NCBI RefSeq assembly: GCF_902148845.1 | Contig: NC_043762.1 | Coordinates: forward strand, 28,907,760-28,962,759 | Length of the DNA stretch: 55,000 nt | Origin: Salarias fasciatus | Taxonomy: Eukaryota | Reading direction: 5' to 3' | In this document: piece after piece, positions 9,060 through 46,896 of the stretch | Numbering within the stretch: the stretch's first letter is position 1 | Layout: the number at the start of each line of letters is the position of its first letter | The notes under the pieces: model-generated | Databases searched by the model: none | Seen by the model: only the letters and a program-made list of their open reading frames with translations | What the model was told of the DNA's origin: nothing | Program-made: the position numbers and the translations under genes

Positions 9060-9279
9060 GAGTGTTCTCCCACAAACCCCGCCCCTTTGGAAAGCTCTCT
9101 GCTACAAAACCAGCGCTCCTGGAGGAGACTGCGCCATCGCCCGTTACGTTAGCTCAGAAGCTAAAAGAAAGCTAGCTCGCGGCTCAGGGGGGCAAATCGC
9201 TCGTGCTCTAAAAGGACGACCTAAGTAACTATTTGACCGATTTTATCCAAACCAAGCCATTTTGCTCGTAAAGGTCGTG
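9060..9279 (+). other. hnrnpc: Candidate non-coding 5' exon / TSS region of hnrnpc
   Basis: GC box CCCCGCCCC near 9077-9085. Exon-like segment ending ...AAAGGTCGTG|gtgagt around 9280, upstream of the first coding exon's acceptor at 12418. Confidence 0.3.
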
Positions 9280-12071
9280 GTGAGTATTTTGTTACCAGAC
9301 ATTTTTCATTTTTCCTTCCTTTTTCTTTTGTTTTTGGATTTTTTCTACGCCTTTTTTTTCCTCTATTTTGCGAGCGGACGTAATGTGCTGGCTAGCAGAG
9401 GTAGCTAGCTCATCCCCCCTTCAATAAAGCACACACGCTGGTTTAGAAACACGACGCTTTGGATGCATTCTAGCGACAGTTTTACATTTTTGCAAGTGTG
9501 CCTAGCTTGATTTTTTTGTAGTGTTTATTGTGAAGATTTTTCTTTGATGGGACTGAATTGTTTTTGGCTCGCCGGCCAGCTAATGTTAGCACTAGCTAAC
9601 AGCGTTGATGTGATAGCCGCAGCGTCATCCTCATCCCTGGTTGGTTGCAGAATATCGACTGCCAATTTATGAGAATTTTGCAGGCTTTGTTTTTCTTTTT
9701 GCGAGGAAAAGAGGGACTTGTCTGATTTTGGTGTATTTTTCATGCTTTTCAATGTGGTGGTTGGCTAACATTTCGCCATGCTAGCCGGCTTTGAGCTCCC
9801 GAGGCTGGCGCAGGGCCTGTATATCAAACTGAGGCCAGCAGGTGGCGCTGTCGGCGTGTGTTGTGGATGGTTTAGGTAATTTTTTTTCTTTCTTTTTTGT
9901 GATAATCCGTAGACTTCATTTTTCTGGCCTGGACAGTTGGTATTTTTTTCGTGGATTAGATTTTCTTCGTGATTTTTCTCGACCTCCAGTTATGCTTTTT
10001 TCTTTTTTTTTCCTCTGATTTTGGGATTTTGGAAGCTTTGGACTGTCTGCGGTTTCATGTTGCATAACGTTACTGAACACACTTCTGATTAAACGTTTCA
10101 CATGAAAGAGTATTATGACTGTTTATGTGAATCAGATCACCCCCTATGTATTCACTACTGGCCCACACACACGTGACACCCCACAACAATGGAGGGAAGA
10201 ATGATCCTAATTACTGTAAAACACAGTCAAGGGCAGCATTGCAAAATGTAACTTTTCAGTATTGTTTCCTCGTGCAACACGTCCTCACTCTGTAACTTCA
10301 TTATCTGATGAACTTCACATACATTTTTCTTTGTAGGATGACAGATTTTTATAAAGATGGAATTAGTCCTTCCCGCAGACCTGCCCCTAATTATTTTCCT
10401 TCACAGTGAAAGTGACACAATTCATCATTTAGTAAGCATTTAACATAAATTAAAACGGAGTCCAACAAAATGCAATCAAACACATTTCACTGGATTCCTT
10501 CGAGATTATTTATATAAGTATGTAAACCTCTCACACGTTTTGATTCGTGATACCCTTACCCCTGGTGTTGTTTGACAAATTCACTGCTCTGTCCCTGTTT
10601 TTTTTTTTAAAATGCTGATGGTTCAAATTTTGCGGATTTTTAAGGTTATTAGAAATACTTGCTTCATATCACTACACAACCAAATCCATTGTCGATAGGT
10701 TTTACTGCCCATTCTGTAAAGTAAAGGTAAAATGTTTTATTTAGACTGATTGCAGCACCACACACACAACACAGTGCCCCCTCTAAACTTATTTACTCAC
10801 TTTTTACTTACTTACTCTGCTCATGTAGGCATGAACAAATGGTCCCATGAACCAGTCTGCCATGAAAGGCATTTTAGTTTAAGAGCTTATAAATCAAATG
10901 TAAGACTGAAGATATGAGTCTTTGAAGGAAACTGCTAAAATGTTATTTCACACACACTGAACATGTGAACCGGTTGAGCAAACCCAGGCTAAATTCTTGT
11001 CAATGAGTACAAGGTTTCTGTCATTGTAGCCATTCTGTCACTGCGCACAGTTTATAATTAACGGCTCCACATTTCTTCCACATGCACAGAGGCCTAGTTG
11101 TAGTCTTGGAGATCCCCACGGCTCCTTGTTGTTTACTGGAGCTGTGTGGCGAATGTTTGCTGCACACATTCCCACCAGGTAAGACTTGGTACAAGATAAC
11201 CCTGCTCAGTTTGACTGAGGTGTGTTTTCTGTCACCTCAGTATAAATCGAGAGGGGCGAAGGTGAAGGTCGACACACCAGCCCAAACTGAACTGAGCCCA
11301 GCCCACAGTGTCAAACCTCAGACAGACGACTGCCCTGCACACAGACGCTATGGAGTGAGTGATGAATGTTAAACCCCATCAGACAGCCGGGGGGGTTCTG
11401 TCGATTCCACTGATGTTTTCATGTTTATTTCTCCTGTACAAAGTCGCACTGCAGGCTCTGGGCTTCACAGCGTGGAGGTTTCTTAGATCAGTGTTGCTGT
11501 GCTCCACAGCTATTTGCTGCTCTTCACCTGCAGCATCCTGTGAGACAAAGCCATCCACTCTTATATGCATTCAATAGATCTCATGAAGCAAAGAATCAAC
11601 AAACAAATCGTCTTTATTCAAAAAAACATGAAACGTGAGCCTGGGGAACCTCTGGTATGCACTGTTAGAACCCTCACTGAAACCTTTGTTTCACATGACT
11701 GTAACAGGAAGCTGTCACTTCACTGAATATGTTGGTTTTCTTTTCCTGAGGCTTCAGGTTTCTGTAAGATTAAACGTAATCTCACCTGGTTTGATGGTGA
11801 AAGAGCAGCACTGCATTCAGTTTGACACTTGGACTAATCTCTGCCCGCACCTTCAGATCGACTCCGGCTCTTAATGCTGGCTGACGGATGTTTGTTGAAG
11901 GAGTGGGGCCTTTCAGATAAAACATAACGATGTTGAGAAATGTTTTTAAGTGGCCCTTTATGTTCAGAGTTCAGCTTCAGAGAAAAATCGGACTCTTAAC
12001 TCACTCAAAAAACTCTGTGGGTTTAATGTTTGTATTTCACCGGGTTTTGAAATAAGATGATTGAGCATTAG

Positions 12072-12857
<786 letters not shown>

Positions 12858-21775: not shown

Positions 21776-22012
21776 GCGAGCCAGAGCCACTTCCCAGGGC
21801 CAGCAGGGCCAGCAGGGCCAGCAGGGCCAGCAGGGCCAGCAGGGCCAGCAGCAGGGCCAGCAGGGCCAGCAGCAGGGCCAGCAGGGCCAGCAGGGCCAGC
21901 AGGGCCTGCAGGGCCAGCAGGGCCAGCAGCAGGGCCAGCAGGGCCAGCAGCAGGGCCAGCAGGGCCAGCAGGGCCAGCAGGGCCAGCAGCAGGGCCAGCA
22001 GGGCCAGCAGGC
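21776..22012 (+). repeat. (CCAGCAGGG)n 9-bp minisatellite, about 25 units; probably the 3' tail of the LINE fragment
   Basis: Perfect or near-perfect tandem ccagcaggg units immediately 3' of the RT fragment. Produces spurious GPAGPA / poly-Leu ORFs on both strands. Confidence 0.85.
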
Positions 22013-22973: not shown

Positions 22974-25900
22974 CAGGTTTCAAACTGCTTTAGATGATAT
23001 CGATCTGGCCTCAGGCAGTCTGCAGGGAAAACTGTCGCCTTTACCGTCACACGTGCACGCCGACGTGCACGCGCGTACTGTGAAAAGGCCAAACCCTGTG
23101 TGGTTTGAGAGGCTGAACAACCACGAAAAAAAAAAAAAAACACCTCACAAAGCACTGAAGCTTTTTCCTGAATGCAGCGTCGAGGCGCCGGACACGACGC
23201 GACACTGAAACTCTTTGAAAAACGCTGACCGTGATGACCTCTGACCCCAAACCCAGAGACAATAGAGCCACAGTGCTCCACCCTCTCAGTGAGTCACACA
23301 GGAGCGGAGCAGCTCTTCCTCATTCTCTCATCAGCGCTCCGACATCCAGCGTGTGACACCGATCTTCAGCCGCAGACGTGATGGAAAATATTTCCACGGT
23401 TTTATCTCCCCGAGGCGGTGTGAAATCACACCCGATGGAAACGGTACTTCAGCAGACAAGATCATTCATCTTATCCACGTGAAGAATCACTTCATTTATG
23501 AACACTTCTCTAGCAGCTGATTAAACCCGTCTGCCAAGGTGGATTATAACTGAAGAGTCCAGACCAGGGGTGTTCAACCTGCGGCTCGGGAGCCACATGG
23601 CCCTCTTCAGTCCCTCTGCAGCAGCTCCATGAAGCTTTGACAAGATGAAGCGTGAATGAGCACTTTAAGTTTTTTTTTTTTTCATAGCTACACACCACAG
23701 GACTCTTCAAAATGAGTTGTTTCTCTCGGTTCAAAAGGGATTCAAACAAAGGTTCAGTAAAGCTGGGAAAAAGTAGCTAAAACCACAAGAAGTGGGGAAA
23801 ACAAGTGATGGAACGTCTTAAAAAACTGTGAAATGTCTAGAATTTCGAACATCAATCTGGTCGGGAAAAATCGTGAAAAACTGTTCAAAAGGAGGAAAAA
23901 CGGTTGAAACAGCTAAAATTTAAAAATTGTCAAAAAAAAAGAAAAGAAAATAGGAGCAAAACTGTTAAATTCAGGTTAGAAAACAGGTTAAATCTAATAA
24001 AATGTTCACTATTCTGAACCCTAACTTCATAAAAGCATCATAACACATATTTTTTGCATGTGCATCAAAACTACATAATTTTCCTGAGCTGCATTCGCCT
24101 CATTTTAAAGGTTAAATGTTCTTTACGGCTCCAGAACAGCTGGACTGGCGGAAAGTCACTGAGACGGCTGTGTTGGTCACACAGGGTGCAGAACCCTGGT
24201 CCAGACTATAGAATCACTGAACAGCTGTGATCCGTGAGAGCGGAGCTGTGAGTGCATCAGGCCTGAAGGTCTGAGCTGCAGGACGCGGTGGAGTTTGCAT
24301 GTTTAAAATGAAGGTAAACCGCACTTCAGACATCGATCTTGGATCTAAATGCTGGTGTGTAACCGTCAGGAGCTTCCATCAGTAAACTGAAGCCACACAC
24401 TCTCACGGTGCAGTGTATTGTTGAGATGTGTACATTTCCCATGCTGCCTTTCTCCTGGCTGTACGTCATCGGCGCACGTCGTCTGGTTCCCAGAGCTTCA
24501 GGACATAAAGACCTGCAGTTCCACCGCCGGCGACTCGACACAAAGTGAATCAGGTCAGCTGGACTTGGTCTCATTCACCGGACCGGGCCGGCGGGTTTCC
24601 TGAGCTGTTGTGTAATCAGAAACATGACTAACAGTTTTGTTCTCCTGTGAAATGCCAGCGTCTCCAGAGTCAGGTTGCAAAAAAACAAGTATGTGCACTT
24701 TATGTCTCTGTCATGGTTGAAGGAAGTTATTACAACACAAGGAAGTTCCTCGCCGTCACGTTTTTATTTTTACCTAAGTGTTCCGTGTTGAGTCCATGTT
24801 TAAATCTAATTTCTGTGACGGACTGATGGATCTCCTCGATCAGCTGCGAGCAGAAGCAGCAGGCGGAGGTTTCACCTCTTATCTTTAGCATCACGCTGCC
24901 AGTTTCAGGAAGAGTCTGTTCCTGTTTCTGTCATCAGGACTGAAGCTCAGCGCAGCAGGCCTTCGTCTGCTTCAGCTGCCCGAGGTTCACATTTCAGCCC
25001 AGTGTCGTCCGGAGTGCATTGGAATGGGAAATATTTCCATAATAAGCTTTAAATTTTAAAGTTTTTCTTTGCTGTGGTGTGGAGTATACCTGATGAAAAT
25101 GTATATATTATCACAAAAACAAAGAAATACCACCAAAAATAACTACAATGTCAACATAAAGCCAGTATTAACGATTCATTTTGGAGCAAAATTGGAAGAG
25201 AAAACAAAACAGCGGTGTGATCACAACTTTTATGGCAGCATCTTCGACGTCTAAGTCCTCGGCTTTTAAGAAAATTGATTAAAAGAAGCTTTAAAAAAAA
25301 TAAACCATGTTTTTGTTTAAGTTCCTGCCCTTTGCTTGTCAGAATGGAACGTTTAATGTGGAAGTTCAATGAAAAATAAAACACAGAAGCATATATTTAT
25401 TCTGACGGTTGTGTTGGCTTAAAAAAAATTCTCAGAGGGTAAATTCTTGAAACTTATGTTTATTATTACTGTATCTTGACATTTGTTACAAATGTCTGCT
25501 AAAAAAAACCTCATCATGGTGACTCAGAGTATTTCTCTTTGTTGGATCTTTGGCGCCACCCAGTGGCGATCAGCAGAACTTTCTTTTAAAGTTTCCTTCT
25601 GTACATGCGTGTAGAGTCGTGCACGCGCAGGGACTGACTGAGTGAATAATGAATGAATGAAAAAACGGACAGAAAAGGGTAACTTGTAATAATTTATTAT
25701 CTCAGTTAGAAACCATCACCGCCGATGACAAGATTCACCCAGATATACAAAAACCCCGAGGGGCCGTATAAAAACATCACACACGTAAAAACGTAGCACA
25801 TTGAGAGGCTGGTCGTCTTAAATAAACCTGAAGAAGAGATGATGCTTGATAAAGTGCGCTGAGTGGAAAAATGTAACAGGAATAGAAAGCGCCGTCACTG

Positions 25901-26413
25901 AGAGACGTTCTGAGTTTGTACCTGAGATGAAACCAGCAACAAGCAGCGTTTCTTTAAAAGTTTTCACCAGTTTGACCCTGAAACACACAAACAGTATAAA
26001 AGACACCAAAAAAAAAGAAAAAGAAAAACAGGGTTTGATCTACAGCAAGTGTTTGATGATCTGCAGACGTTAATCAGCTCATGTTAAACAGCTGCAGCAG
26101 CAGTGGCTTAGAGAGGACTTGTTAGTGTTTAGTTTTTCAGTGAAATCTGATCACTGCCCGACGCAACCAGACCAGATCAGGGACCACTGAAGGACCGATT
26201 AGAACCAGCTGATTGAGCTCGGAGGGCCGGGAGCTCCGGCTCCATGTTTCCACTGTGTTTCTACTGAGTCAGTCCCGTCATGTGTGTTTAAGTAGAGTCG
26301 TACTGAAAACCCTCCGGGATGAGGATCAGGATCAGGATCAGGATCAGGATCAGGATCCAGGCTGTGATCCTGATGAAAGCTGCAGCTCTTCAGGCCGGCT
26401 GCTCCTGCTGGAG

Positions 26414-27982
26414 CTAGATGTAGAGCCCGTCTTCCAGCAGGGCGTTGGAGCGAGGTCTGGATCCTCGCCGGCTGTGGTGATGCTCTCTGCGATGGCTGCC
26501 GCCGTGCTCCCTCCTCCTCTCCTCCTCCTCCTCCTCCTCCTCCTCCTGCTCCTCTCTCCTGCTGCCTCTCCTCTGGCTCCGGTGGCTCCTGGTGGCATCC
26601 CGCCCGCTGCCGCCCCGGTCCCAGTCTGACTGCCCCCTGGTGGAGGCTGAGGCGTGGTGCGTCCGCTGCGCCTCCGTCTGGCCGTGCTCTCCTCGTCTGG
26701 ACCCGGGCCTCTGGTCCTCCGCTCTCCTCCTCCAGCTCTCCGTCCGGTCGTGGTCTCGGTCTCGGTGGGAGTGCCTGCCTCCTCCTCCCTCCTCCTCCCG
26801 GTCGCTCCGGCTGCTGTGCCTCCTCGTGCTCCTGCTGTCCGTCTCTCTCTCGGTGTTGACGGATCTCCACTCCGGCTTCGCTCCTCCTCCTCCCCCTCCT
26901 CCCCCTCCTCCTCCCCCTCCTCCTCCTCCTCCCTCCTCCTTGCTGCTGCTGCTCCTCCTCCGGCTCTCGCTGCCGGTTCTGTCCCACTCGCTGTAAGCTT
27001 TGACGCTCGTCTCGTGTCCTCTGGCGTCTCCTCTGCTGCTGGGCTCTGGTCTGGGCTCTGGTCTGGGCTCCGGTCTGGGCTCTGGTCTGGGCTCCGGTCT
27101 GGGCTCCGGTCTGGGCTCCGGTCTGGGCTCCGGTCTGGGCTCCGGTCTGGGCTCCGGTCTGGGCTCCGGTCTGGGCTCCGGTCTGGGCCCGTCTGCGTCT
27201 CGCTGACTCTCTCGTCTTCCGGCTGTGATCCGGTTCTCTGCCTCTTTCTCCTTCTTGGTTCCTCTCGGAAGCGGTTCTCCTGCTGGCTTCTCCTTGGCCT
27301 TCTTCTTCTCCTCCTCGTCGGTCTCTGATCTGGACTCGGAGCCGGCCTCGGACTGGTCCGTCTTCTCTCCCGGCTCGTCCTTCTCCTTCTCCTTGGCCTT
27401 CAGACTCTCCGCCTCCTTCGCCTCCCTGGCCCTCTGCTGCTCCTCGGCCAGCTTCCGGTCCAGCTTCTCCTCCAGCAGGTCCAGCTCCTGCTCCAGCTCC
27501 GCCAGCTTCTTGGGGTCGGACTCCAGCTCGTCCTCCACCTCCACCTCCACCTCCTCGATCTCCTCGTACTCCTCCACCTCGATGCCGTCCATGGTCTTCT
27601 GCAGCTGCGTCTTCACCTTGTTGAGCTCCAGCAGGCCGTCCTGCAGGTCTTTGCACACGTCCCGGATCTTGGAGGCGAACTTGGTCTTGGCGCCCTTGCG
27701 CAGCTTGTGCGAGTCCTTGGCGAGGAAGAAGATGTCGAGGGCGAGGAAGAGCGCCGACATGACCCCGGTGGTGACGCTGATGGCCTGGGCGGCCTTGGCC
27801 ACGCCGCCGGCGGCGCCCAGCACCTGCACGGTGCTGATGAGCTTGTCGGTGTTGATCATCAGGGCCTTCCCCGCCCGGCCGCCCTCCTTCATCACGTGCT
27901 TGATGTTGTGGTTCATGGCCTTGCTGGCGGCGCTCTGGGAGTACTTCTCGAAGTCCCACTCCTGCAGGGTGTCCATGCCTTC
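26414..27982 (-). CDS. APOL-A terminal coding exon: second half of the APOL domain plus about 390 aa of low-complexity Arg/Glu/Ser/Pro/Gly-rich tail (starts [60 protein letters not shown]...[35 protein letters not shown]...; ends ...[10 protein letters not shown] stop)
   Basis: Acceptor ccggctgcag|GAAGGCATG. The frame aligns with the intronless paralogue APOL-B (GAKSEFAAKIREVATQLHDGLVELN). Signature APOL motif GAK(T/S)(K/E)(F/T)A...EL. Stop TAG at 26414-26416. The tail contains (PEPR)12, poly-Gly, poly-Glu and RS/RD/RE dipeptide runs. Confidence 0.65.
27027..27195 (+). repeat. Perfect 12-bp tandem repeat (GGGCTCYGGTCT)x13 inside the APOL-A coding tail; encodes (PEPR)n on the minus strand
   Basis: ctctggtctgggctccggtctgggctc... 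periodicity 12. Confidence 0.9.
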
Positions 27983-28064
27983 CTGCAGCCGGCGGACAGG
28001 AGACAGCGGGGTCAGAGAACAGAGGCGAGGATACAGAAACGCCGCCGAGCGAACGCCCGCTGAC

Positions 28065-28479
28065 CTGCACGAACTCCATGCACTCGCGGATGTCCTTGAT
28101 CTCGTCCTGGTACTCCTGGATCATCTTCTCCAGCTTCTTGCGGTCCATGTTGGAGTGCACCGTGTCCGTGATGTTGGCGGTGGCCGAGGCGATGCTGCCG
28201 GCCGTCGCCACGCCGATGCCCACCGCCGTGACGATGATGGAGGCGCCGAAGGTGAAGGGCGCCAGGATGAGGCCGGTGATGGTGGTCACGCTGCCGGCCA
28301 CGCTGGCCACGCCGCCGCCCACCGCCGCCGTCGTCGTCTTCTTGTGGAACTGGTCGGCGGCGTCGGCGAGGGCCAGGAGCTCCAGGATGCGGTGCTGCAG
28401 CGACGCCCCCCGCTGGTTGAAGAGGTACACGAAGAAGCGGGCCGCCATATAGACCCGGTCGGCCGCCTGCTCCATCGCC
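28065..28479 (-). CDS. APOL-A coding exon: first half of the APOL domain ([139 protein letters not shown])
   Basis: Acceptor ttctctgcag| (phase 2), donor CAG|gtcagc. 415 nt. Gly/Ala/Ile/Thr-rich membrane hairpin ...ITGLxLAPxTxGxSLIVTAVGxGxATAG..., typical of APOL proteins. Colinear with APOL-B. Confidence 0.7.
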
Positions 28480-28553
28480 CTGCAGAGAACAGAACGCTGA
28501 GGAGGAGGAGCATTCCGCCACAAAGACGATGCGAACGAGAAAAAACAACTCAC

Positions 28554-28605
28554 GCTTCCTCATCCCCCTCCTCAAAGTTGGAAGACTCGCTCCACTCCGT
28601 CCAAC
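28554..28605 (-). CDS. APOL-A coding exon (GWTEWSESSNFEEGDEE)
   Basis: Acceptor gggttgccag|, donor GC|gtgagt. 52 nt, phase 1 in and phase 2 out. Positional and size match to the 52-nt exon of APOL-B. Confidence 0.55.
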
Positions 28606-28687
28606 CTGGCAACCCGCAGCACAGACAGCATCAGAGTGAGATAAAACTCCGATCAGTTCAGTGTGAGCAGAGGACAGAGAGACTGAC

Positions 28688-28727
28688 CTTTGACCGACTT
28701 CCACCACTCCATCAGCTCGTTGTTCTC
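28688..28727 (-). CDS. APOL-A coding exon (ENNELMEWWKSVK)
   Basis: Acceptor gtctctcag|, donor AAAG|gtcagt. 40 nt. Matches the APOL-B 40-nt exon DAEDLMDWWNTVE. Confidence 0.55.
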
Positions 28728-28819
28728 CTGAGAGACGAAAGAAGAGACGCGTCAGGACACGGTCTCTTATCTCTGGGATGGAAAAGTTCAGAAAAGTTCT
28801 GAAACTCTGGAAGACGCAC

Positions 28820-28894
28820 CTGCTCGGCCTGGAGCCGGGCCTCCTCGGTGGGATACGCCACCATCTCCACCGTCTCCGTCTCCACCGTGTTCTC
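28820..28894 (-). CDS. APOL-A coding exon (ENTVETETVEMVAYPTEEARLQAEQ)
   Basis: Acceptor ctgtttcccag|, donor CAG|gtgcgt. 75 nt, phase 0. Confidence 0.5.
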
Positions 28895-29011
28895 CTGGGA
28901 AACAGACGCAGCACAGCGTTAACCGCCGAGCCGCTGCTATTATCATCATCATCATTCGTTTTGCTGTGTTTGTTCTTGTGCTGCATTTCAGCTCCAGCTC
29001 GTCTTCCTGAC

Positions 29012-29074
29012 CTGCGCTGGGTTCATCTCCTGCAGCTCCACCGTCTCCTCAACCGTGGGCATCTTTTCTGAACT
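29012..29074 (-). CDS. APOL-A exon containing the first in-frame ATG (SSEK-MPTVEETVELQEMNPAQ). ATG at 29062
   Basis: Acceptor cctcctcag|AGTTCAGAAAAGATG; donor CAG|gtcagg. 63 nt, phase 0. The reading frame stays open upstream of the ATG back to the acceptor. Confidence 0.5.
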
Positions 29075-29367
29075 CTGAGGAGGAAAAACATTTAAAAGAA
29101 TAAAGTCCAGACTAACAGACATTTTGTTTGAGTACAAGTTAAAGTGAAGCAGAAATAAAACATCGTCTAACAGACGATACCTGCGACGACAAGTTAAGTT
29201 TGGGCATTCTCGGCAGAGTTTTCTTGACTCGGAAAGAAACGACCTGGAAAACAAACAGGAGACATTCATGAGGAGGAGATGTGATATTAAAGCCAGACTA
29301 ACGGTTGGTTTTATGTCCTGATTCATCTTCTTCTGCTCTTCGGCGTCTCCACATGCTGCAAACTGAC

Positions 29368-29439
29368 CCGCTGTTTCTTCTTGATGGTCCGCTTGCGCCT
29401 CAGTCCTGCTCCTGTCAGGGGCGCCGTGTCCTCACCCCC
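29368..29439 (-). CDS. Array-1 microexon 41, basic (GGEDTAPLTGAGLRRKRTIKKKQR)
   Basis: Acceptor ctcctctgcag|, donor CGG|gtcagt. 72 nt, phase 0. The last array exon, about 290 bp upstream of the APOL-A ATG exon. Confidence 0.45.
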
Positions 29440-29552
29440 CTGCAGAGGAGGACAGGGACGGTCTGCTCAGACTTGTGCTGATCACAGCAAACTCAATCAC
29501 CTCGCAGTATTTTGATCTAATCACCAAACGGCACTGATCAGATCGGCCGTAC

Positions 29553-29612
29553 CTGCTGCTCCTCGTTTTTCGGCGTCCTCCTGAACATCCCGGCAAAACC
29601 ACCTTTTCTCTC
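29553..29612 (-). CDS. Array-1 microexon 40, type B (ERKGGFAGMFRRTPKNEEQQ)
   Basis: Acceptor ttccggaacag|, donor CAG|gtacgg. 60 nt. Confidence 0.5.
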
Positions 29613-30143
29613 CTGTTCCGGAAAACACACCACGCAGAACTCATTTATCAGCTGGACTGATGTGTGTCCATGTAAAGGAAATATCACCGGACTGTAAAAC
29701 TCACCTTTGTGCCTGCAGAGTCAAGGTTTTCATTACTGGTTGATAATTCGCCGTGAGCGAAAGGATCATCCTAATGAATGAATGAATGAATGAATGAATG
29801 AGTGAGTGAGTAAGTACTCATAGTGAAGCAGAAGTACAGATACTTGAGCGGAACATGATCTGTTAACAATTCAGCTTCTTTACTGAAGTGAAAGTAAGAA
29901 ATGCGGTTATTACGTAATACTGGGTTATTACAGTTTACAAAGACGCATTTCATCTGGTAGTTTACTGTCAGACACTACATTAGTCTTGGAATGAAAAAAA
30001 AATCTGTTGACCCGGCCAGACTTTGTAAAGAAACCCTACAATTGATTCCATTTCCACCTTCCAAATCGCCATGAGTGTGACTTATTCCCTGAACTCTGAA
30101 CTGGTGGCGTTGGGCTGAATTCCAGCCTCTCGGAACGTCTCAC

Positions 30144-30203
30144 CTCTCCGGCGTCGCTCAGGCTGTCCACACTGGCCGAGCGCTTCGAGTCACTCAGAGG
30201 ATC
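30144..30203 (-). CDS. Array-1 microexon 39, type A (DPLSDSKRSASVDSLSDAGE)
   Basis: Acceptor ccttcccag|, donor GAG|gtgaga. 60 nt. Confidence 0.5.
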
Positions 30204-30389
30204 CTGGGAAGGAAAATAAGTTTAAGGTGTCTCTCCTCTCTCCAACAGCACTTTCCAGACACAAACGTTTAAATGTGTGACTTCTAGAGCAGAAACGGTC
30301 AGTAAAGCCTATTTGCTTTCCAGCTTCCAGGAAGCAGTGAAGGGATCGACTGCACAGCGTTCTGACACAAACTAACTTCATCTGCTCAC

Positions 30390-30461
30390 CTGCACGGCCG
30401 CCGACCGTTTGGCCGGTTTGGGAGACTTTCTGAAAATCCCTGCCAGTCCTCCAGACTTCTC
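30390..30461 (-). CDS. Array-1 microexon 38, type B (EKSGGLAGIFRKSPKPAKRSAAVQ)
   Basis: Acceptor gtgtttcag|, donor CAG|gtgagc. 72 nt. Confidence 0.5.
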
Positions 30462-30540
30462 CTGAAACACACACAGACCATAATGAGGCGTCGGAGGACG
30501 CAGAGGACGGAGGCTGGAGGTTGATCCTCGACGCCGGCAC

Positions 30541-30606
30541 CTTGGCTGCGGATCCCTCGGAGAGGTTTTCACTGCTGGCAGACAGCTTCTTCTCCTCGCC
30601 TGATTC
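30541..30606 (-). CDS. Array-1 microexon 37, type A (ESGEEKKLSASSENLSEGSAAK)
   Basis: Acceptor cttcctgctcag|, donor AAG|gtgccg. 66 nt. Confidence 0.5.
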
Positions 30607-30692
30607 CTGAGCAGGAAGAAAACACTTTGAGACAAATGTCACTAAAATAAACAGGTTCTGTTGTGAAGTTCATGGAAAAGTCACGGCCGTAC

Positions 30693-30746
30693 CTCGTCTG
30701 CTGGTTTCTGGGCTTTCTTGAACATCCCACTGAAGATGTTTTTCTC
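30693..30746 (-). CDS. Array-1 microexon 36, type B (EKNIFSGMFKKAQKPADE)
   Basis: Acceptor tttgattccag|, donor GAG|gtacgg. 54 nt. Confidence 0.5.
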
Positions 30747-30817
30747 CTGGAATCAAACAGCGAGCGCAGATCAGAAACCAGCTTCAGAGGCAGAGACGGC
30801 GGTCCAGCTGGATTTAC

Positions 30818-30883
30818 CTTGGTGCTGCTGCTTTCAGTCAAGTTCTCAGTGCTTGCTGAAAGCTCCTTCTGAGAGTCCCTGTC
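30818..30883 (-). CDS. Array-1 microexon 35, type A (DRDSQKELSASTENLTESSSTK)
   Basis: Acceptor gtttgttttgcag|, donor AAG|gtaaat. 66 nt. Confidence 0.5.
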
Positions 30884-31098
30884 CTGCAAAACAAACTCAA
30901 CTGTATGAAACTGAACTTATCTCCATCTGTTGATGATATGAACCACAGGGCAGCTGAGAGGAAAGCTTTTTGGCCCAGAGGTCTTCTGGGAACAAACACT
31001 TTCTCAGCGATGAAACTAAACCTGTGTTGTTTGGTGCTGAATGAATAAAGCTGAGCTGAACTGAAATCCAGTGAGTCCAGACCAGGGACCGGTCTCAC

Positions 31099-31164
31099 CT
31101 CCGCCTCGTCTCCTGACGCTCTGGTGGTTTTCTTGCGGCGTCCACCGAACAGGCCGCCGTTCTC
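31099..31164 (-). CDS. Array-1 microexon 34, type B (ENGGLFGGRRKKTTRASGDEAE)
   Basis: Acceptor ttctgtcctgcag|, donor GAG|gtgaga. 66 nt. Confidence 0.5.
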
Positions 31165-31440
31165 CTGCAGGACAGAAAAGAGCTGAATGAGGGAGTGTCT
31201 CAACACCATGACATTCAAATGATAAAGAAGGGACTGTTTTATAAGTTCATCTGTTACCATCATCTGGCTGTTCTCTCATTTAAAGTCAATTCAAATAACT
31301 GGATCAGTCTGAAGTTGGTCTAATCAATCTTTATTTCGTGTCACACGGGTTTAAAACTCTAATTTTAACAGTTAAACTACAAAGTACAGCTGAAATGCAC
31401 ACACACACTCTCACACTCACACACACACTCTTCCACTGAC

Positions 31441-31509
31441 CTCGTCAAACAGGTCAAACTCAATGCTGGCTGATCTCTTGAACATTTCCGCCAGCCCCCC
31501 TTTTTTCTC
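31441..31509 (-). CDS. Array-1 microexon 33, type B variant (EKKRGLAEMFKRSASIEFDLFDE)
   Basis: Acceptor tctgttttag|, donor GAG|gtcagt. 69 nt. Confidence 0.45.
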
Positions 31510-31778
31510 CTAAAACAGACAAACACACAAACAAACACAAACACACACTTGTGTCATGATGAGAAGCAAATCACACCCGTTTCCTTTGACAGAAGCAAAA
31601 AGGTTAAAGGTCACTGGGCCGTTTGTCACATCTACGAAGCTCTGACTGATTGACCCTCCGATTAGCGACCCGACACAACGCGAGTCGCTGCTCTAACCCT
31701 CCAGACTGATGTCTACTCCAGTTTCAGTTCGCTCAGGCTGCGGTCGGGGTGGCGGCGGCGGCGGCGGCGGCGCCGTAC

Positions 31779-31850
31779 CTTGGGGACGGTCGTGTCGGTC
31801 AGATTCTCAGAGCTGCCTGATAGCCGGTCGTCAGAGTTGAAATCCGAGTC
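31779..31850 (-). CDS. Array-1 microexon 32, type A (DSDFNSDDRLSGSSENLTDTTVPK)
   Basis: Acceptor ttgagtttag|, donor AAG|gtacgg. 72 nt. A (GGC)n repeat lies in the downstream intron. Confidence 0.45.
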
Positions 31851-31930
31851 CTAAACTCAAAAACAGAAAACGGTGAATAAAAGGAGACAAAAGATGTTTG
31901 AAACTGGACGCTCTTCAAACAGCCGCCGTA

Positions 31931-31984
31931 CCGCCTCTGCTGGTTTCTGCGGCCGCTTGAACATGTTGGTGAAGATGTTTTTCT
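31931..31984 (-). CDS. Array-1 microexon 31, type B (EKNIFTNMFKRPQKPAEA)
   Basis: Acceptor tttatcttttcag|, donor GCG|gtacgg. 54 nt. Confidence 0.5.
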
Positions 31985-32066
31985 CCTGAAAAGATAAACT
32001 GAAGTCAGTCCGTGATCCTTCCTCCTGTAATACGGAAACGTTAAGTGTTTGGTAAGCTACACTCAC

Positions 32067-32132
32067 TTTGCCGCCGGTATTCTCAGACAGGTCTTCACTG
32101 CTGGCTGACAGCTCCTTCCGACTCTCTCCGTC
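32067..32132 (-). CDS. Array-1 microexon 30, type A (DGESRKELSASSEDLSENTGGK)
   Basis: Acceptor ttttggtttcag|, donor AAA|gtgagt. 66 nt. Confidence 0.55.
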
Positions 32133-32202
32133 CTGAAACCAAAAGAAAGGTTGAGTTTGTGTGAAAGCTCTGAAGCTGTTGGGCACATGTCGGCTGGTTT
32201 AC

Positions 32203-32277
32203 CGGCGAGCCGCTCCTCTCTCCGGACGCTCTGGGAGTCTTCTTAAGGAGTCCACTGAACAGCCCTCCACCTTTCTC
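32203..32277 (-). CDS. Array-1 microexon 29, type B (EKGGGLFSGLLKKTPRASGERSGSP)
   Basis: Acceptor gtcttggtcag|, donor CCG|gtaaac. 75 nt. Confidence 0.5.
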
Positions 32278-32363
32278 CTGACCAAGACAGAAGAGGCCTT
32301 CAGGAGGGATCCAGACCAGGAACAGTGAGATCCTGGACCAGATGTCAGGTTTAACTTACTGAC

Positions 32364-32423
32364 CTGTTTGTTCTCAGACAAATTCTCGGTGCTGGCCGAG
32401 AGCTCAGAGTCAAGAGGCATGTC
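32364..32423 (-). CDS. Array-1 microexon 28, type A (DMPLDSELSASTENLSENKQ)
   Basis: Acceptor ttccttctcttccag|, donor CAG|gtcagt. 60 nt. Confidence 0.55.
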
Positions 32424-32522
32424 CTGGAAGAGAAGGAAAGAAAGAAGAGTTCAAAAGGTCTCAAAAGTTAAATAAAGCAGACAGTGACTGACACACAAAC
32501 TGGAAAAGATTCCCACGGATAC

Positions 32523-32594
32523 CTCCTCGGACTGAGCAGCTTCTGCGGGTTTATGAGGCTTCTTGAATATTCCGCTGAATAATCCTCCTTTTTC
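32523..32594 (-). CDS. Array-1 microexon 27, type B (EKGGLFSGIFKKPHKPAEAAQSEE)
   Basis: Acceptor ctctgtttcag|, donor GAG|gtatcc. 72 nt. Confidence 0.55.
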
Positions 32595-32792
32595 CTGAAA
32601 CAGAGCAGCCGGTGTTCATTTCCATGACAAGGCTGAGATCGTTCAGTAATGTCTGACAGAGCTGGGTGTTGCAGAAAGAGGATTTTAACTTGTTAAGAGA
32701 GTTATGGAATCAAAGTCAGACAAACACTGTCTCCCTGCTATCAGGAGTTAACGCTGTTTACCTGAAGGTCAGGAGTTTACACATCGTCATAC

Positions 32793-32846
32793 CTTGTTGT
32801 CGGTCGGGCCTTCAGCGCCGCCGTCATCCTCCTGAGACTTTCTCTC
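32793..32846 (-). CDS. Array-1 microexon 26, acidic (ERKSQEDDGGAEGPTDNK)
   Basis: Acceptor tctttttccag|, donor AAG|gtatga. 54 nt. Confidence 0.45.
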
Positions 32847-33155
32847 CTGGAAAAAGAGGACGACAGTCACAGTCTTGATTCCATTTTCTGGAAATAATCC
32901 CGATGAAATGTTCGGGTGATGAACCAGAGAGCTTCCTGCATCCGTCCTCCTGAGACGAAGGATGCTTTATCTTTTTTATTCCCTCTTGGGTGAAAACAAC
33001 AACTCATCCACAATATACAACACCACACACTGTACAGCAGCCGGCAACACCAGGAGGACGATGGTTAAAGCAACGCTGATGTTAAAGATATATTTCAATT
33101 AATAGAGATTAAAGATGAACTATTAAAATGCGTTTTTCCTGAGAGCCACACTGAC

Positions 33156-33221
33156 CTTTGTGTTTGGAGCATCAGTCAGACTGTCGGTACTGCCCGACAC
33201 GTCTTTAGCAGAAGAACTCTC
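33156..33221 (-). CDS. Array-1 microexon 25, type A (ESSSAKDVSGSTDSLTDAPNTK)
   Basis: Acceptor tttttgtttcag|, donor AAG|gtcagt. 66 nt. Confidence 0.5.
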
Positions 33222-33397
33222 CTGAAACAAAAACACAAACTGTCTGTTATCAAGGCGGGTGATGAAGACAGGTGTGGCCCAACAGAAGATGTTTTCTCAA
33301 AATGAATGTTGTTGTAATGTCCAGAACCAACAGAAGCCCTGGGGTTTCCTGCAGAGGGGCTCATAAATAACCTATAAAGAACATAAATAATCTTCAC

Positions 33398-33454
33398 CTC
33401 TGCCGCTGTTTTCGGAGTCTTTCGGAGGAGTCCACTGAACAACCTGCCTTTCTC
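33398..33454 (-). CDS. Array-1 microexon 24, type B (EKGRLFSGLLRKTPKTAAE)
   Basis: Acceptor ttttccttcctctgcag|, donor GAG|gtgaag. 57 nt. Confidence 0.55.
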
Positions 33455-33608
33455 CTGCAGAGGAAGGAAAAAAAAAAAGCAAACTCATTGTGGTTGGCGG
33501 TAGAATGACCAGGAAGTTCTTCCTCTGCAGCAGCTTGAAACACGAGTGCTGCTGTGGCGAGCGACTCATGGAGGAGGAAGCGTCCAGCGGTCGTGATGAG
33601 AGTCGAAC

Positions 33609-33665
33609 CTTGTTCTCCAGGCTGTCGGTGCTGGTGGAGAGCTCGCCGTGTAGCCGCTCCACGCC
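33609..33665 (-). CDS. Array-1 microexon 23, type A (GVERLHGELSTSTDSLENK)
   Basis: Acceptor gttgttttcag|, donor AAG|gttcga. 57 nt. A (CAA)n repeat lies in the upstream intron. Confidence 0.5.
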
Positions 33666-33887
33666 CTGAAAACAACAACAACAACAACAACAACATGGTG
33701 CCATGTGTGACATTTTTTATCAACAACATTTATTTTAAAGCAGATGAAGAAGGAACAAGAGAATCACACTAATATGGCATCAGCTGTGAGCTACAGCGAG
33801 AAAACAAGGCTGACAGATCATTAACGCAAATAAAAGTCAAATAAAGGAGAAACTTATGAAGGCTTAACAAGTGACAGTGAGATCTGC

Positions 33888-33941
33888 AGTGCATCACCTC
33901 CTCGGATGGTTTCGGTTTCTTAAACATTCCACTGAAAACGC
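33888..33941 (-). CDS. Array-1 microexon 22, type B (EKGGVFSGMFKKPKPSEE)
   Basis: Acceptor gcgtatcag|, donor GAG|gtgatg. 54 nt. Confidence 0.5.
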
Positions 33942-34034
33942 CACCTTTCTCCTGATACGCAAAGAAAAAAAGCATTTTGTCAGATGTGCCGTTTCCTGTA
34001 AAGCTTCAGAAGCTTGATTTGATAGTGTTCTTAC

Positions 34035-34097
34035 TTTGGTGCTGCTCTCAGAGAGATTCTCGCTGCTGGCCGACTTCGCAGCCTGCAGCGACTCATC
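34035..34097 (-). CDS. Array-1 microexon 21, type A (DESLQAAKSASSENLSESSTK)
   Basis: Acceptor cttgtgtttcag|, donor AAA|gtaaga. 63 nt. Confidence 0.55.
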
Positions 34098-34744
34098 CTG
34101 AAACACAAGCGAGTAACCCGATCAACACTCACATTGAGCTGGATTTATAAGCAGAAATCTATCATCGAAGGCAGGGAAGCCTGATTTCTGCCAATTACAT
34201 GTTTAAAAACAAGAAAATTGCTGAAAAAGTGGGGAAAAAAAATGAGTTTTAGAGGTTAAAAAAATGTAATTTAAATCATGAAATAAGTCAAGCAGTGTTT
34301 CAAAGTTACAGCTTATACCAAAGAGACACGTTGTTCATGTAATGTTGCTATAAATACTTTGACGTGGGAAGTAAATAAAGCTACGGCGAGCTGTGAGAGA
34401 CAAAACAAGAAGTGCAGCCAACAGGCAGCGGCACTTCAGAAAGTTTACACTTCTGCAGGAGTGTGTGTCACTGGAACGAATCACACCCGGCTTCCAGAGG
34501 ACAGACATGCAGACCCATAATGCAGTTTCTTTCATTAAACTAGAAAAAAGTAGAGTCTGTTCAGCTGCATGTGTTTTAAATGAGGTTTATTTTCATTATG
34601 GAGCCGATTGAAAACAGTCTGATTTAAGGGAAAGACAGACAAACAGGTTTTTCCAGGAAACCAGTCAGTTCACTTCCTCAGTGGCCTTCAGGGAGTCTGT
34701 TTGCTCAGCTCACCTCCATCAGCGCCAGAATCTAAACTCCTCAC

Positions 34745-34813
34745 CTGTGCAGGCGTCGCCTCTCCGGGAGTCTTGGGTGGTTTCCGTCGCATTCCGCCGA
34801 AAAAGCCTTTTTC
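34745..34813 (-). CDS. Array-1 microexon 20, type B (EKGFFGGMRRKPPKTPGEATPAQ)
   Basis: Acceptor cgtctgtctccag|, donor CAG|gtgagg. 69 nt. Confidence 0.5.
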
Positions 34814-34899
34814 CTGGAGACAGACGGACAGATGATACTGTGTTGATCGTGCTTATTAAATCCACGATGCAGCATTTTCCACCAGATTCACATTCAGAC

Positions 34900-34959
34900 C
34901 TTCGGCGGATTTTCAGTCAGACGGTCTTTGCTGCCGGAGAGCTCATCACACTGCTCGTC
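34900..34959 (-). CDS. Array-1 microexon 19, type A variant (DEQCDELSGSKDRLTENPPK)
   Basis: Acceptor ggtttgttttcag|, donor AAG|gtctga (weak). 60 nt. Confidence 0.4.
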
Positions 34960-35035
34960 CTGAAAACAAACCAGCCACATTTATTATCAGGCGACACACA
35001 GACTCACACATTTTATCTGATTCTCCAACAATCAC

Positions 35036-35098
35036 CTGATCAGCCTCAGCAGCTTCTGCTGGTTTCTTCTTGAACAGCCCACCGAATTTGCCTTTTTC
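35036..35098 (-). CDS. Array-1 microexon 18, type B (EKGKFGGLFKKKPAEAAEADQ)
   Basis: Acceptor tctgtgtttcag|, donor CAG|gtgatt. 63 nt. Confidence 0.5.
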
Positions 35099-35177
35099 CT
35101 GAAACACAGAGCAGGAAGCAGGTGTGATTTCCGCCGGTCGCAGGTCGGAGGTACTCGGTGTGTGTTATAATCTTCAC

Positions 35178-45246: not shown

Positions 45247-46219
45247 TCAGACGTACTCCCTGTTCTCATACTCCTTCTTGATGGCCTTCTTGATGCGGTC
45301 GATCTCGTCCTCGCTGGAGCTGTCGCGGTGGTCGTGGTCGTCTTTCTCCTTCTTCTCCTCCTCCTGGTTGGCGTTCCCGGCCGGAGCGTCCTCGGCCCTG
45401 CCCTCCGGCGTGGTGGACTGCAGCTCCTCCCGGATGGTGTTCAGCTCCACCAGGCCGTCGTGCAGCTGCGTCGCCACCTCCCGGATTTTGGCGGCAAACT
45501 CCGACTTGGCGCCTTTCTTGAGGATTTTGGAATCCTTGGCCACGAAGTAGATGTCCATGCCCACGAAGAGTCCGGTGAGCACGCCGGTGGCCATGCTGGC
45601 GATCTGCACCGCCCTGGCCGCCGTGCTGCCCGCCACGTTGGCGATCTGCACCACGCGCATGATCTCGTTGGCGTTGATGAGGATGGCCTTGCCCGCCATG
45701 GCGCCGTCCTCGTAGAAGCTGCTGGTGAGCGCGGGGAAGTCCTGGTTGTAGGCGTGGTTCTTCATCTTCATCAGGTCGAAGCGCCGCAGGTTCTCGATGC
45801 CTTGCTTGATGAACTTCAGGCACTTGTTGAGGTCGGCGATCTTCTCCTGGTAGTCCTCCACGATCTTCTCCACCTTCTTGCGGTCCATGGAGTTGTTGAC
45901 CTGGTTGGAGATGCCGGCGCCCGCCGACGTCAGGCCGCCCGCCGTGGCGATGCCCAGCCCCACCGCCGTCACGATGAGGGAGGTTCCCATGGTGACGGGC
46001 GCCAGGGCCAGGCCGGTGATGGTGGCCACGCCCCCGATGGCGCTGGTGGACCCCCCGGTGATCTGGGCGATCTTGGTGTTCTTGTTGAACTTGTCGAGTC
46101 CGTCTGCGATGGCGTTGAGGTCGATGACGTGCTGCCACAGCGACTCGGCGCGCTCCGAGAACAGCTTGTTGAAGACGCGGATGCCTTTCTGCACCTTGTC
46201 CGCCGTGACGGCGAAGGCC
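45247..46219 (-). CDS. APOL-B terminal coding exon: complete APOL domain without an intron (...AFAVTADKVQKGIRVFNKLFSERAESLWQHVIDLNAIADGLDKFNKNTKIAQITGGSTSAIGGVATITGLALAPVTMGTSLIVTAVGLGIATAGGLTSAGAGISNQVNNSMDRKKVEKIVEDYQEKIADLNKCLKFIKQGIENLRRFDLMKMKNHAYNQDFPALTSSFYEDGAMAGKAILINANEIMRVVQIANVAGSTAARAVQIASMATGVLTGLFVGMDIYFVAKDSKILKKGAKSEFAAKIREVATQLHDGLVELNTIREELQSTTPEGRAEDAPAGNANQEEEKKEKDDHDHRDSSSEDEIDRIKKAIKKEYENREYV stop)
   Basis: Acceptor cctcttcctcgcag| (phase 2). Hallmark APOL membrane-hairpin and GAKSExAxxxxExAxxL motifs. Stop TGA at 45247-45249. Confidence 0.8.
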
Positions 46220-46372
46220 CTGCGAGGAAGAGGCCGGGGTCAGCACACTGAGACGGTTCTGATGCTTCACATTTCTACCCTCCACTGCAGCGATGAGGCG
46301 CATTTCAGACGAGAACCAAACACACTCCTCAACTGACCTTAAATCATGACGTATGAAGTGCGGTTCACTTAC

Positions 46373-46424
46373 TTAGCTTCCTCTTTTTCCGTCAGGTCTT
46401 CATCCTCTGGCCGGTCCTCCCATG
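46373..46424 (-). CDS. APOL-B coding exon (PWEDRPEDEDLTEKEEA)
   Basis: Acceptor cctttgtcag|, donor AA|gtaagt. 52 nt, phase 1 in and phase 2 out. Same size and phase as the APOL-A 52-nt exon. Confidence 0.55.
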
Positions 46425-46796
46425 CTGACAAAGGAAACGAGGGATTTTATTTTGAAACACTGCATAAACTGATGGGTGAAAACTATGTGGACACATCACA
46501 CAACAGGTTTATTAATCTGCCTCTGAAAGTTGTGACACTAATCCGTACTAATCCATACGACTGCAGAAGCATTTTATCTTCAGGCTTAATTTTCTCATCT
46601 TGCTGCAATCACTGTTTGTTATTATGATGTAAAACAGTTTATCTTATATTACTGTATGGATGCTGAGTAGCAGACGCAGTAGTGATCCTGTTTCTTTACT
46701 ATATATTTTTTTTTAATAAGAAATGCCACATTAGGATATATTGTTTAGAAATATTCAAATTCAAACCATAATTAACTCAATTAATCCGATACTTAC

Positions 46797-46836: not shown

Positions 46837-46896
46837 CTGAAACACACCATCAGATTTGTACGTTTCTGTTCCTTTGTTGAATTGAATCAGTGGACT

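Follow-up and report, generated by a model that had tools for sequence, protein, structure and literature searches.

The long C-terminal tail of apold1a in Salarias fasciatus: a probably translated region of a kind common in teleosts, with repeat runs of its own

The open frame that follows the apolipoprotein L (ApoL) helix of APOL-A in Salarias fasciatus was, with a probability of about 0.8, a genuine translated C-terminal region of teleost apold1a, placed entirely within the last coding exon. The analysis covered one stretch of 55,000 nucleotides (contig NC_043762.1, 28,907,760 to 28,962,759; hereafter the window). Coding status was supported by a terminus conserved in orthologues, a profile match specific to one frame, the spliced transcript of a relative and the terminal exon of Channa argus. 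A long tail in this gene is of a kind already known from teleost apold1a, genuine but ordinary. The preliminary description of this DNA had the frame running on for about 390 codons past the helix, and it did so for 394 codons after ...KVKTQLQ (26417-27598, minus strand), up to a stop codon at 26414-26416. The span given there, 26414-27330, held for the distal tail but not for the whole post-helix tail, which extended to 27598, and the gene lay on the minus strand.

On sequence similarity, APOL-A is orthologous to teleost apold1a (apolipoprotein L domain containing 1a). Its closest proteins were named apold1a (identity 86-90% across about 330 aa), matches named apold1b ranked below these and had tails of about 55 aa, and identity to apol1 was just 40% (C-terminal half of the ApoL domain). 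The Pfam ApoL profile (PF05461) matched the last-exon product alone with 31.2 bits (cut-off 25.9; E = 2e-7; profile positions 224-297), and was present in all homologues. The ORF in the last exon (26414..27976, minus strand) encoded 520 aa, and an exact look-up of it in public assemblies found no identical protein. In database records, apold1a was also filed as si:rp71-1g18.13, as "uncharacterized", and under names of the "myb-like protein X" and "neurofilament medium polypeptide" type.

The penultimate coding exon (Table 1) had an AG acceptor and a GT donor in the sequence and a consistent phase, and was aligned by tblastn with orthologues P0024 (Mastacembelus) and P0022 at 86% and 73% identity, respectively. 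The spliced product across the short intron (EFVQ/EGMD, with the slash at the intron) agreed with the orthologue proteins. Exon structure was compared with the genome of Channa argus (protein P0011), which had the same layout of a 138-codon exon followed by a single terminal exon with the whole tail (aa 449-990, contiguous); the window exons 28479-28065 and 27982-26414 corresponded to 8738-9151 and 9562-11187 of Channa argus L002. The first AATAAA downstream of the stop would give apold1a a 3'UTR of about 0.7 kb.

Table 1. Features of apold1a and apol1 in the window.
Feature	Position	Strand	Description
apold1a penultimate coding exon	28065..28479	minus	138 codons; N-terminal half of ApoL domain, including hydrophobic hairpin
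Short apold1a intron	27983..28064	minus	82 nt, GT...AG
apold1a last exon, coding part	26414..27982	minus	522 codons plus stop; C-terminal half of ApoL domain and whole tail
Proximal tail	27383..27598	minus	Acidic stretch, then conserved helix; near-invariant across 25 orthologues
(PRPE)x12	27044..27187	minus	12-bp tandem repeat; 9 CCG units and 3 CCA units
Gly17	26882..26932	minus	Interrupted (GGA)n/(GGG) run; found in the window only
Conserved island AKPEWRSVN...	26801..26881	minus	Contains basophilic-kinase-type RRxS site; from alignment
Glu9	26519..26545	minus	Pure (GAG)9
Conserved terminal module	26417..26488	minus	Last Ile invariant; Leu at -2 at least 90% conserved; -1 variable
Candidate poly(A) signal	25693..25698	minus	First AATAAA 3' of stop; pattern scan
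apol1 (APOL-B), large terminal coding exon	45247..46194	minus	Short conserved C-terminus ...IDRIKKAIKKEYENREYV-stop

The profile comparison separated the reading frames. A hidden Markov model built from the distal tails of 20 orthologues, with the window sequence left out, matched the APOL frame only (64.4 bits; E = 5.4e-22; 317 residues), and the other five frames scored below zero. An RNA-derived Logan contig from a relative (SRR28473478_4436) carried at least four exon equivalents and the whole tail in one ORF, followed by about 1 kb of 3'UTR with an AATAAA beyond the tail ORF. A pattern scan for AATAAA and ATTAAA found neither inside the tail. The apold1a tail should be annotated as coding here, and trimming it as a low-complexity 3'UTR would be wrong.

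Orthologues with tails of about 300-470 aa numbered at least 31 and ranged from bonefish and salmonids to percomorphs; their tails ended in [L/F]-x-Ile-COOH, mostly as DGL[Y/N/D/H]I. In an alignment of 25 sequences the final Ile was invariant, Leu at -2 was conserved in at least 90%, and position -1 was free (Y/N/D/H/S). Conserved islands were collinear across orthologues, and the PRPE array and Gly17 aligned as insertions. A profile of the terminal module gave 15 matches in 1.84 billion representatives, all of them teleost ApoL proteins or fragments and always at the extreme C-terminus, with no named match outside teleosts. Because bonefish, salmonids and percomorphs all have the tail, it is old. 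Besides the identity of the ApoL domain, the window gene shared with other teleost apold1a the exon structure, the neighbour apol1, the acidic stretch and helix, and a charged disordered tail with the same island order and a ...DGL-x-I C-terminus; it differed in that only the window had (PRPE)12, Gly17 and Glu9, in a shortened counterpart of the VKDWRAEMAK... segment, and in residue composition (Lys 6% vs 9-21% in orthologues, Arg 16%, Pro 8%).

APOL-B is placed by its closest proteins (apolipoprotein L1 or "Apolipoprotein L, 1", 84-89% identity) as teleost apol1, an ancient neighbouring paralogue of apold1a rather than a recent duplicate, and its C-terminal end agreed with that of Eleginops apol1. 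In the window apol1 adjoined apold1a at 18 kb on the same strand, and the locus tags of the two genes were consecutive in Etheostoma, Cyprinus, Albula and Leuciscus. Teleost apol1 resembled apold1a in its ApoL domain, but had a large exon without an intron, a C-terminus of its own and a separate, ancient orthology group. APOL-B had been described as stopping about 60 residues past the helix and as lacking the long tail; 56 residues followed its equivalent ...ELQ and closed in a conserved end of their own. The description of the APOL-A tail as an extension relative to a comparable paralogue did not stand, as many teleosts have long apold1a tails and APOL-B is another gene, itself ancient. The proper labels of APOL-A and APOL-B are apold1a and apol1.

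Cypriniform apold1a models stopped 70-100 aa past the helix, and therefore the long tail is either not universal or alternatively processed. Production of both tailed and tail-less isoforms in this gene, the latter by joining a donor in or near the helix or acidic region with an acceptor past the stop, was considered unlikely. Some fish models do stop soon after the helix (e.g., Perca with ...LDRKFTVNIAG, and cyprinids), although such short database models may be truncated predictions, and no transcript supported the tail-less form. A scan with a crude position-weight matrix drawn from general knowledge returned a donor-like site at 27616 in the helix codons (score 7.5; real donors of the gene 5.3-8.4), but this position falls in invariant coding sequence (NKVKTQ). 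The same scan gave weaker donor-like sites at 27538-27577 in the VEVEVE codons, and acceptor-like sites at 25859 and 25828 in the 3' region; acceptor-like sites were absent from the purine-rich tail itself.

In the full-length tail, the proximal part was followed in order by (PRPE)x12, Gly17, stretches rich in R, S, D and E, Glu9 and the stop. The helix of the proximal tail is probably a coiled-coil. AlphaFold2 placed it at residues 157-200 of the last-exon product, at a pLDDT of about 88; from about residue 205 to the end at 522, most positions had pLDDT 35-45. The approximately 320 residues C-terminal of the helix are predicted to be an intrinsically disordered, near-neutral polyampholyte (about 46% charged residues, 4% hydrophobic). 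The island at 26801..26881 aligned with Channa, Mastacembelus, Cottoperca and others, and [RK][RK]x[ST] occurred there in 9 of 21 sequences. The protein would run from a membrane-inserting ApoL domain through the acidic stretch and the roughly 44-residue helix to a disordered part with a few conserved short motifs and a conserved end.

The PRPE array was absent from all 31 orthologue tails, and (PRPE)12, Gly17 and Glu9 were seen in the Salarias fasciatus genome alone among the sequences compared. The longest Gly run in orthologues was 4, and Gly17 sat in an alignment gap. Tandem Repeats Finder (TRF) delimited the 12-bp repeat at 27039-27188 (period 12, 12.5 copies, 97% matches). Nine units read CCCAGACCGGAG and three read CCCAGACCAGAG; all differences among units were synonymous (CCG/CCA, Pro), and eight consecutive units were identical. 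The repeat had been described as perfect over 27027-27195, a perfection that held for the peptide; the DNA was near-perfect, with three variant units and the narrower limits of Table 1. Recent expansion inside a coding exon, also proposed at the outset, agreed with the confinement of the array to the window (0 of 31 orthologues) and with the eight identical units, and the array is, judged by its distribution, a recent insertion in one lineage. Expansion by replication slippage probably gave (PRPE)12 from the 12-bp unit, as well as Gly17 and Glu9.

There is a small chance, slightly below that of a tail-less isoform, that the tail is real and that the copy numbers of its runs (12 PRPE, Gly17, Glu9) are partly assembly artefacts. 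Perfect short tandem arrays at 65-67% GC are error-prone in assembly, and a single sequence was available; however, the arrays were short (27-144 nt) and inside read length, and none of them broke the frame before the conserved terminus.

The open APOL frame taken alone was weak evidence of translation, with weak significance. The tail sense strand had 53 T in 1185 nt (4.5%), its second frame was also stop-free and its third had one stop, and 36 of 2000 dinucleotide-preserving shuffles (1.8%) left the APOL frame without a stop. These figures, and the presence of long ORFs on the plus strand as well, would fit an mRNA that ended or shifted frame soon after the APOL helix, with 26414-27400 untranslated and stop-free for want of T. 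A chance ORF in simple sequence had been offered as an alternative in the preliminary description. That alternative was rejected and is very improbable: the orthologue-tail profile fitted the APOL frame alone (E = 5e-22), 31 species kept the terminal motif down to its final residue, the tail was carried by the relative's spliced transcript and the Channa terminal exon, and a poly(A) signal was absent within it. Homology, and not the open frame, showed the tail to be more than chance. An antisense gene was also considered and rejected; the plus-strand ORFs at 26213-26629, 26592-26996 and 26654-27328 had no Pfam match and looked compositional.

Tail GC was 0.67 in the window vs 0.50 in Channa, and Arg stood in place of consensus Lys at 9 of 40 columns in the window vs 1-3 in four control species. 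A GC-driven shift from Lys to Arg, together with the repeat expansions, probably produces the look of perfect repeats and of RS/RD/RE runs. That look had prompted a comparison with splicing-factor and nuclear-speckle regions, which proved superficial. An RS-type low-complexity domain targeting nuclear speckles or the splicing machinery is hardly credible here: R, S, D and E were abundant and short RS/RD/RE runs occurred, but RS/SR dipeptides were too sparse (17 in 402 residues, with no stretch of 50 aa holding more than 6), the protein had an ApoL membrane domain and no RRM, and Lys stood in orthologues at the Arg positions of this species, which makes the resemblance partly a compositional by-product. 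RS domains of SR proteins have a dense RS/SR run and an accompanying RRM, and the tail had neither; Pfam matched the last-exon product to neither an RRM nor any other RNA-binding domain. An RRM ORF at 12105-12803 belonged to a different gene on the opposite strand.

A protein search with the tail alone returned just unrelated prokaryotic linker proteins rich in Pro and Glu (TonB-like, PF05887-type) and no relatives, because its PRPE words swamped the search. The Pfam match to Trypan_PARP (20.6 bits vs a cut-off of 100) was a compositional likeness and not homology. The Glu-Pro/Lys-Pro linker of TonB and the EP repeats of trypanosome procyclin resemble the array in that Pro alternates with a charged residue, but have no homology to the tail, where the array is recent and confined to a single lineage.

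As a translated region, the apold1a tail may function as a charged spacer with a PDZ-ligand-like end. Its disordered part would be a flexible spacer in the cytoplasm, open to phosphorylation and able to drift in exact sequence, with selection acting on short motifs and on the hydrophobic-x-Ile end. That end, L-Y-I, follows the class II PDZ ligand pattern, with positions 0 and -2 conserved, and could tether the membrane protein to a scaffold. Like class II PDZ-binding C-termini (hydrophobic-x-hydrophobic-COOH), the apold1a end has hydrophobic residues at both key positions, and it closes the long, disordered, presumably cytoplasmic tail of a membrane protein; the likeness is a pattern match. 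Both the PDZ-ligand and the phosphorylation role are suggested by motif patterns. A stronger version, in which nothing in the spacer is strictly selected except a few RRxS phosphorylation islands and a hydrophobic-x-Ile end that docks to a PDZ scaffold, for example at endothelial junctions, is speculative and rather doubtful, if less so than a tail-less isoform.

Human APOLD1 is short (about 279 aa) and is not known to have a tail of the apold1a kind. The literature searched made no mention of apold1a. Human APOLD1 combines three transmembrane domains with a coiled-coil, and mammalian APOLD1 is reported at endothelial junctions and Weibel-Palade bodies and has been linked to endothelial junctions and bleeding (PMC9973481). 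Fish apold1a and mammalian APOLD1/VERGE, likened through the names given by the sources, are both ApoL-domain membrane proteins with transmembrane segments followed by a coiled-coil.

If the stronger version were true, fish apold1a would be a scaffold-tethered version of APOLD1, and the (PRPE)12, Gly17 and Glu9 microsatellites would tune spacer length and stiffness between lineages or individuals. A specialist would find none of the tail findings very surprising. The tail is a clean case of a conserved disordered region: its sequence has drifted, its simple repeats have grown and GC pressure has probably turned Lys into Arg, yet the frame, some short motifs and the final residues have been kept for very long. 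For work on what the apold1a family does, the invariant ...L-x-I end and the RRxS islands are candidate handles.

By splice-site reading in the window, the open reading frame of APOL-A, the apold1a orthologue, was part of a multi-exon gene, with an 82-nt intron between a 138-codon exon and the last coding exon (see table). The last-exon product contained the C-terminal part of the ApoL domain above threshold (Pfam PF05461, 31.2 bits vs. 25.9). After the conserved APOL C-terminal helix the frame continued for 394 further codons (the tail), in the order acidic stretch, helix-forming segment, K/E/S-rich part, (PRPE)x12, Ser run, Gly17, R/S/D/E/H-rich sequence, Glu9, conserved ending and stop; every item listed for the tail in the preliminary description was present. 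Upstream, apold1a was a row of small exons, each with a copy of an EK(S/K)GG(L/F)AG(I/M)F(K/R)K(S/T)PKP-like motif, which looks like an exon-level tandem repeat; the repeated N-terminal module was also found in three orthologous proteins (P0022, P0024, P0245). The GC content was 0.60-0.65 at 26000-29000 (last two apold1a exons and surroundings) vs. about 0.37-0.52 across most of the window, and 0.98 at third codon positions where the last exon encodes the domain. A hexamer array lay 57 nt downstream of the stop, in the presumed 3'UTR.

Positions of apold1a features and of other features of the window
Feature	Position	Strand	Basis or description
520-aa open reading frame	27976 down to stop at 26414-26416	minus	ORF reading
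apold1a exon, 138 codons, GT donor at end	28479-28065	minus	splice-site reading
apold1a last coding exon, product EGMDTLQEW...	27982 (after AG acceptor) to 26414	minus	splice-site reading
(PRPE)x12 12-bp array	27044-27187	minus	nine CCCAGACCGGAG and three CCCAGACCAGAG units
Gly17	26882-26932	minus	interrupted GGA/GGG run
Glu9	26519-26545	minus	pure (GAG)9
Small upstream apold1a exons	28500-35100	minus	
Hexamer array	26317-26357	plus	(GGATCA), about 7 copies
APOL-B terminal exon	45247-46194	minus	
apol1 gene (APOL-B)	45250-50700	minus	about 5.5 kb
9-bp repeat	21795-22011		CAGGGCCAG, about 22 copies, TRF score 292-398
ORF with RNA-recognition motif	12105-12803	plus	Pfam RRM_1, E 3.5e-13

A search with the two-exon product matched 427 fish proteins. 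The best matches were named apold1a (apolipoprotein L domain containing 1a), with 86-90% identity over the 330-aa domain region, or carried names that are uninformative and stem from low complexity ('myb-like protein X', 'neurofilament medium polypeptide', 'eIF3 subunit A-like'). Among the 120 matches listed, at least 31 had roughly 300-470 residues after the helix and an [L/F]-x-Ile ending, most of these 31 finishing in DGL[Y/N/D/H]I. Endings were NALLGDGLYI in Channa, NAVLGDGLYI in Mastacembelus, KVLLEDGLNI in Cottoperca, KALLRDGLDI in cichlids, NAVLSDGLDI in Merluccius, VLMDDGLYI in Stigmatopora, RMTEDGLYI in Cynoglossus, ALRHDGLNI in poeciliids, ...CQFYI in salmonid-type contigs and ...REPLSI in Albula. 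The final Ile was invariant and Leu at -2 at least 90% conserved (25-sequence alignment). Aligned with MAFFT, 21 tails shared collinear islands between the window and other fishes: the acidic stretch and helix, KKDKEAENxITAGKE, KPEWRSVN..., RTESWRR, SHRS, EKRGSRxESxRRxFERAGGEE (weak in the window) and the terminal module; (PRPE)12 and Gly17 were insertions of the window only. Searched with a profile built from the final 85 residues, 1.84 billion representative proteins gave 15 matches, every one at the extreme C-terminus (named matches: Solea, Anabas, Oncorhynchus, Pholidichthys, Dunckerocampus); all five long proteins scanned had an ApoL domain, and the others were short fragments. As far as these data go, the terminal module is thus specific to the apold1a family and to teleosts.

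The neighbouring APOL-B was not part of apold1a but the terminal exon of another gene. In many teleosts its nearest proteins (84-89% identical) went by the name apolipoprotein L1 or 'Apolipoprotein L, 1', and its end, ...IDRIKKAIKKEYENREYV, was itself conserved. Consecutive locus tags of apold1a and apol1 in Etheostoma, Cyprinus, Albula and Leuciscus indicate that the two are ancient neighbours, not recent duplicates. The tail-less APOL-B was therefore uninformative on a recent gain of the tail in APOL-A. Unlike in apold1a, the ApoL domain of apol1 was encoded without a short intron; apol1 proteins of Eleginops and Nibea aligned with small upstream exons of the gene. Elsewhere in the window, a 9-bp repeat was open in several frames, the plus strand reading (GPA)n and the minus strand giving Leu/Ala-rich or Cys/Trp/Pro-rich repeats, with no Pfam match, and neighbouring ORFs matched no family. 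The ORF with an RNA-recognition motif presumably belongs, as an exon, to a neighbouring gene on the opposite strand. An antisense gene was rejected as a candidate, plus-strand ORFs across the tail region being without family match.

Production of a tail-less isoform beside the tailed one is improbable: a possible donor, AAG|GTGAAG at 27616, scored as high as the gene's real donors with a crude matrix and acceptor-like sites lay beyond the stop (25859, 25828), but within the tail, which is purine-rich, the splice-site scan found no acceptor-like sites. A pattern scan along apold1a on the minus strand found no poly(A) hexamer before 25698. Among the matches listed, cypriniform and some other database models ended 55-100 residues past the helix; possible causes are genuine loss, alternative processing and truncated prediction. 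The cypriniform models P0060-P0101 stopped in K-rich sequence, 70-100 residues beyond the helix, and did not have the ...DGL-x-I terminus; a long tail was retained in models from elopomorphs, salmonids and percomorphs.

Of the 1185 nt of the tail's sense strand, 53 were T. Two of its three frames, the APOL frame and one other, had no stop, and the third had one. The APOL frame stayed open in 36 of 2000 dinucleotide-preserving shuffles. Taken alone, its openness was barely more than chance, and was therefore not used as evidence for coding. An HMM of the distal tails of 20 orthologues (window, strongly conserved acidic part and helix excluded), searched against the six-frame translation of 26300-27372, matched the APOL frame only (64.4 bits after composition correction, E 5.4e-22, 317 residues); the remaining five frames scored below zero. 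In a relative, the 3056-nt Logan contig SRR28473478_4436 was a single ORF uniting counterparts of four or more window exons (...LMEWWNTVKGWAEWNE...EFVQAGMDTLEEW...) and covering the entire tail to ...ALLEDGLNI-stop; a 3'UTR of about 1 kb, with AATAAA at its end, followed, and the contig is therefore a spliced, mRNA-derived assembly. In the Channa argus genome, tail and domain ran on without a break in one terminal exon (aa 449-990); the exon before it had 138 codons, exactly as in the window. The fortuitous ORF through simple sequence, offered as an alternative in the preliminary description, is thus contradicted by homology (conserved ending, islands, exclusive module), the frame test, the relative's spliced contig and the Channa structure, and is very unlikely; the apold1a tail is conserved coding sequence.

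The 12-bp array, described earlier as perfect, was perfect as peptide and only near-perfect as DNA because two unit types were mixed; all unit differences were synonymous. Eight consecutive units were identical and the PEPR unit occurred in none of the 31 orthologue tails, so the array fits a recent expansion by slippage. The longest Gly run in these 31 tails was 4, vs. Gly17 in the window. Other tails had their own local repeats (His8 in Brachionichthys; Glu8-10 in Cynoglossus and Albula), and K/E-rich blocks were duplicated in Cottoperca and Stigmatopora; on this evidence, the tail seems generally prone to repeat turnover.

Tail GC was 0.67 in the window vs. 0.50 in Channa. The window tail had 6% Lys (orthologues 9-21%) and 16% Arg, with Arg at 9 of 40 columns where at least half of the orthologues had Lys (1-3 in four control species). 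This Lys-to-Arg shift, probably driven by local GC pressure at 26000-29000, gives much of the "RS/RD/RE" appearance of the tail. Its likeness to splicing-factor or nuclear-speckle RS domains is hardly tenable, the RS/SR dipeptide density being too low and the product having no RRM (Pfam).

AlphaFold2, run on the last-exon product with the 25-sequence alignment, predicted a confident helix at residues 157-200 (pLDDT about 88) and no secondary structure from about residue 205 to the end (pLDDT mostly 35-45; PRPE block slightly higher, 55-61). The distal tail, a disordered polyampholyte, was 46% charged (orthologues 48-55%), with a net charge of about +1 and 4% hydrophobic residues. Conserved RRxS-type sites lay inside islands (RRHS, RRGS), and [RK][RK]x[ST] occurred at further columns in most orthologues. 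At the C-terminus, positions 0 and -2 were kept and -1 was variable, as is characteristic of class II PDZ ligands. Beyond this observed anatomy and conservation, we infer an ApoL domain that would sit in a membrane, a helix that may mediate oligomerisation, and a disordered tail that would serve as a flexible spacer open to phosphorylation, with a C-terminal end that would dock onto a scaffold protein. Human APOLD1 has been described with three transmembrane domains and a coiled-coil (PMC9973481).

The apold1a tail is real; the preliminary description saw it correctly and misread it in part. Public gene models of many fishes already include both the gene and its long tail, and apold1a was not mentioned in the literature searched. 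What is new is the species-specific coding microsatellite expansions and the compositional shift within a conserved disordered tail, and the invariant hydrophobic-x-Ile motif, exclusive to the apold1a family, in which that tail ends.
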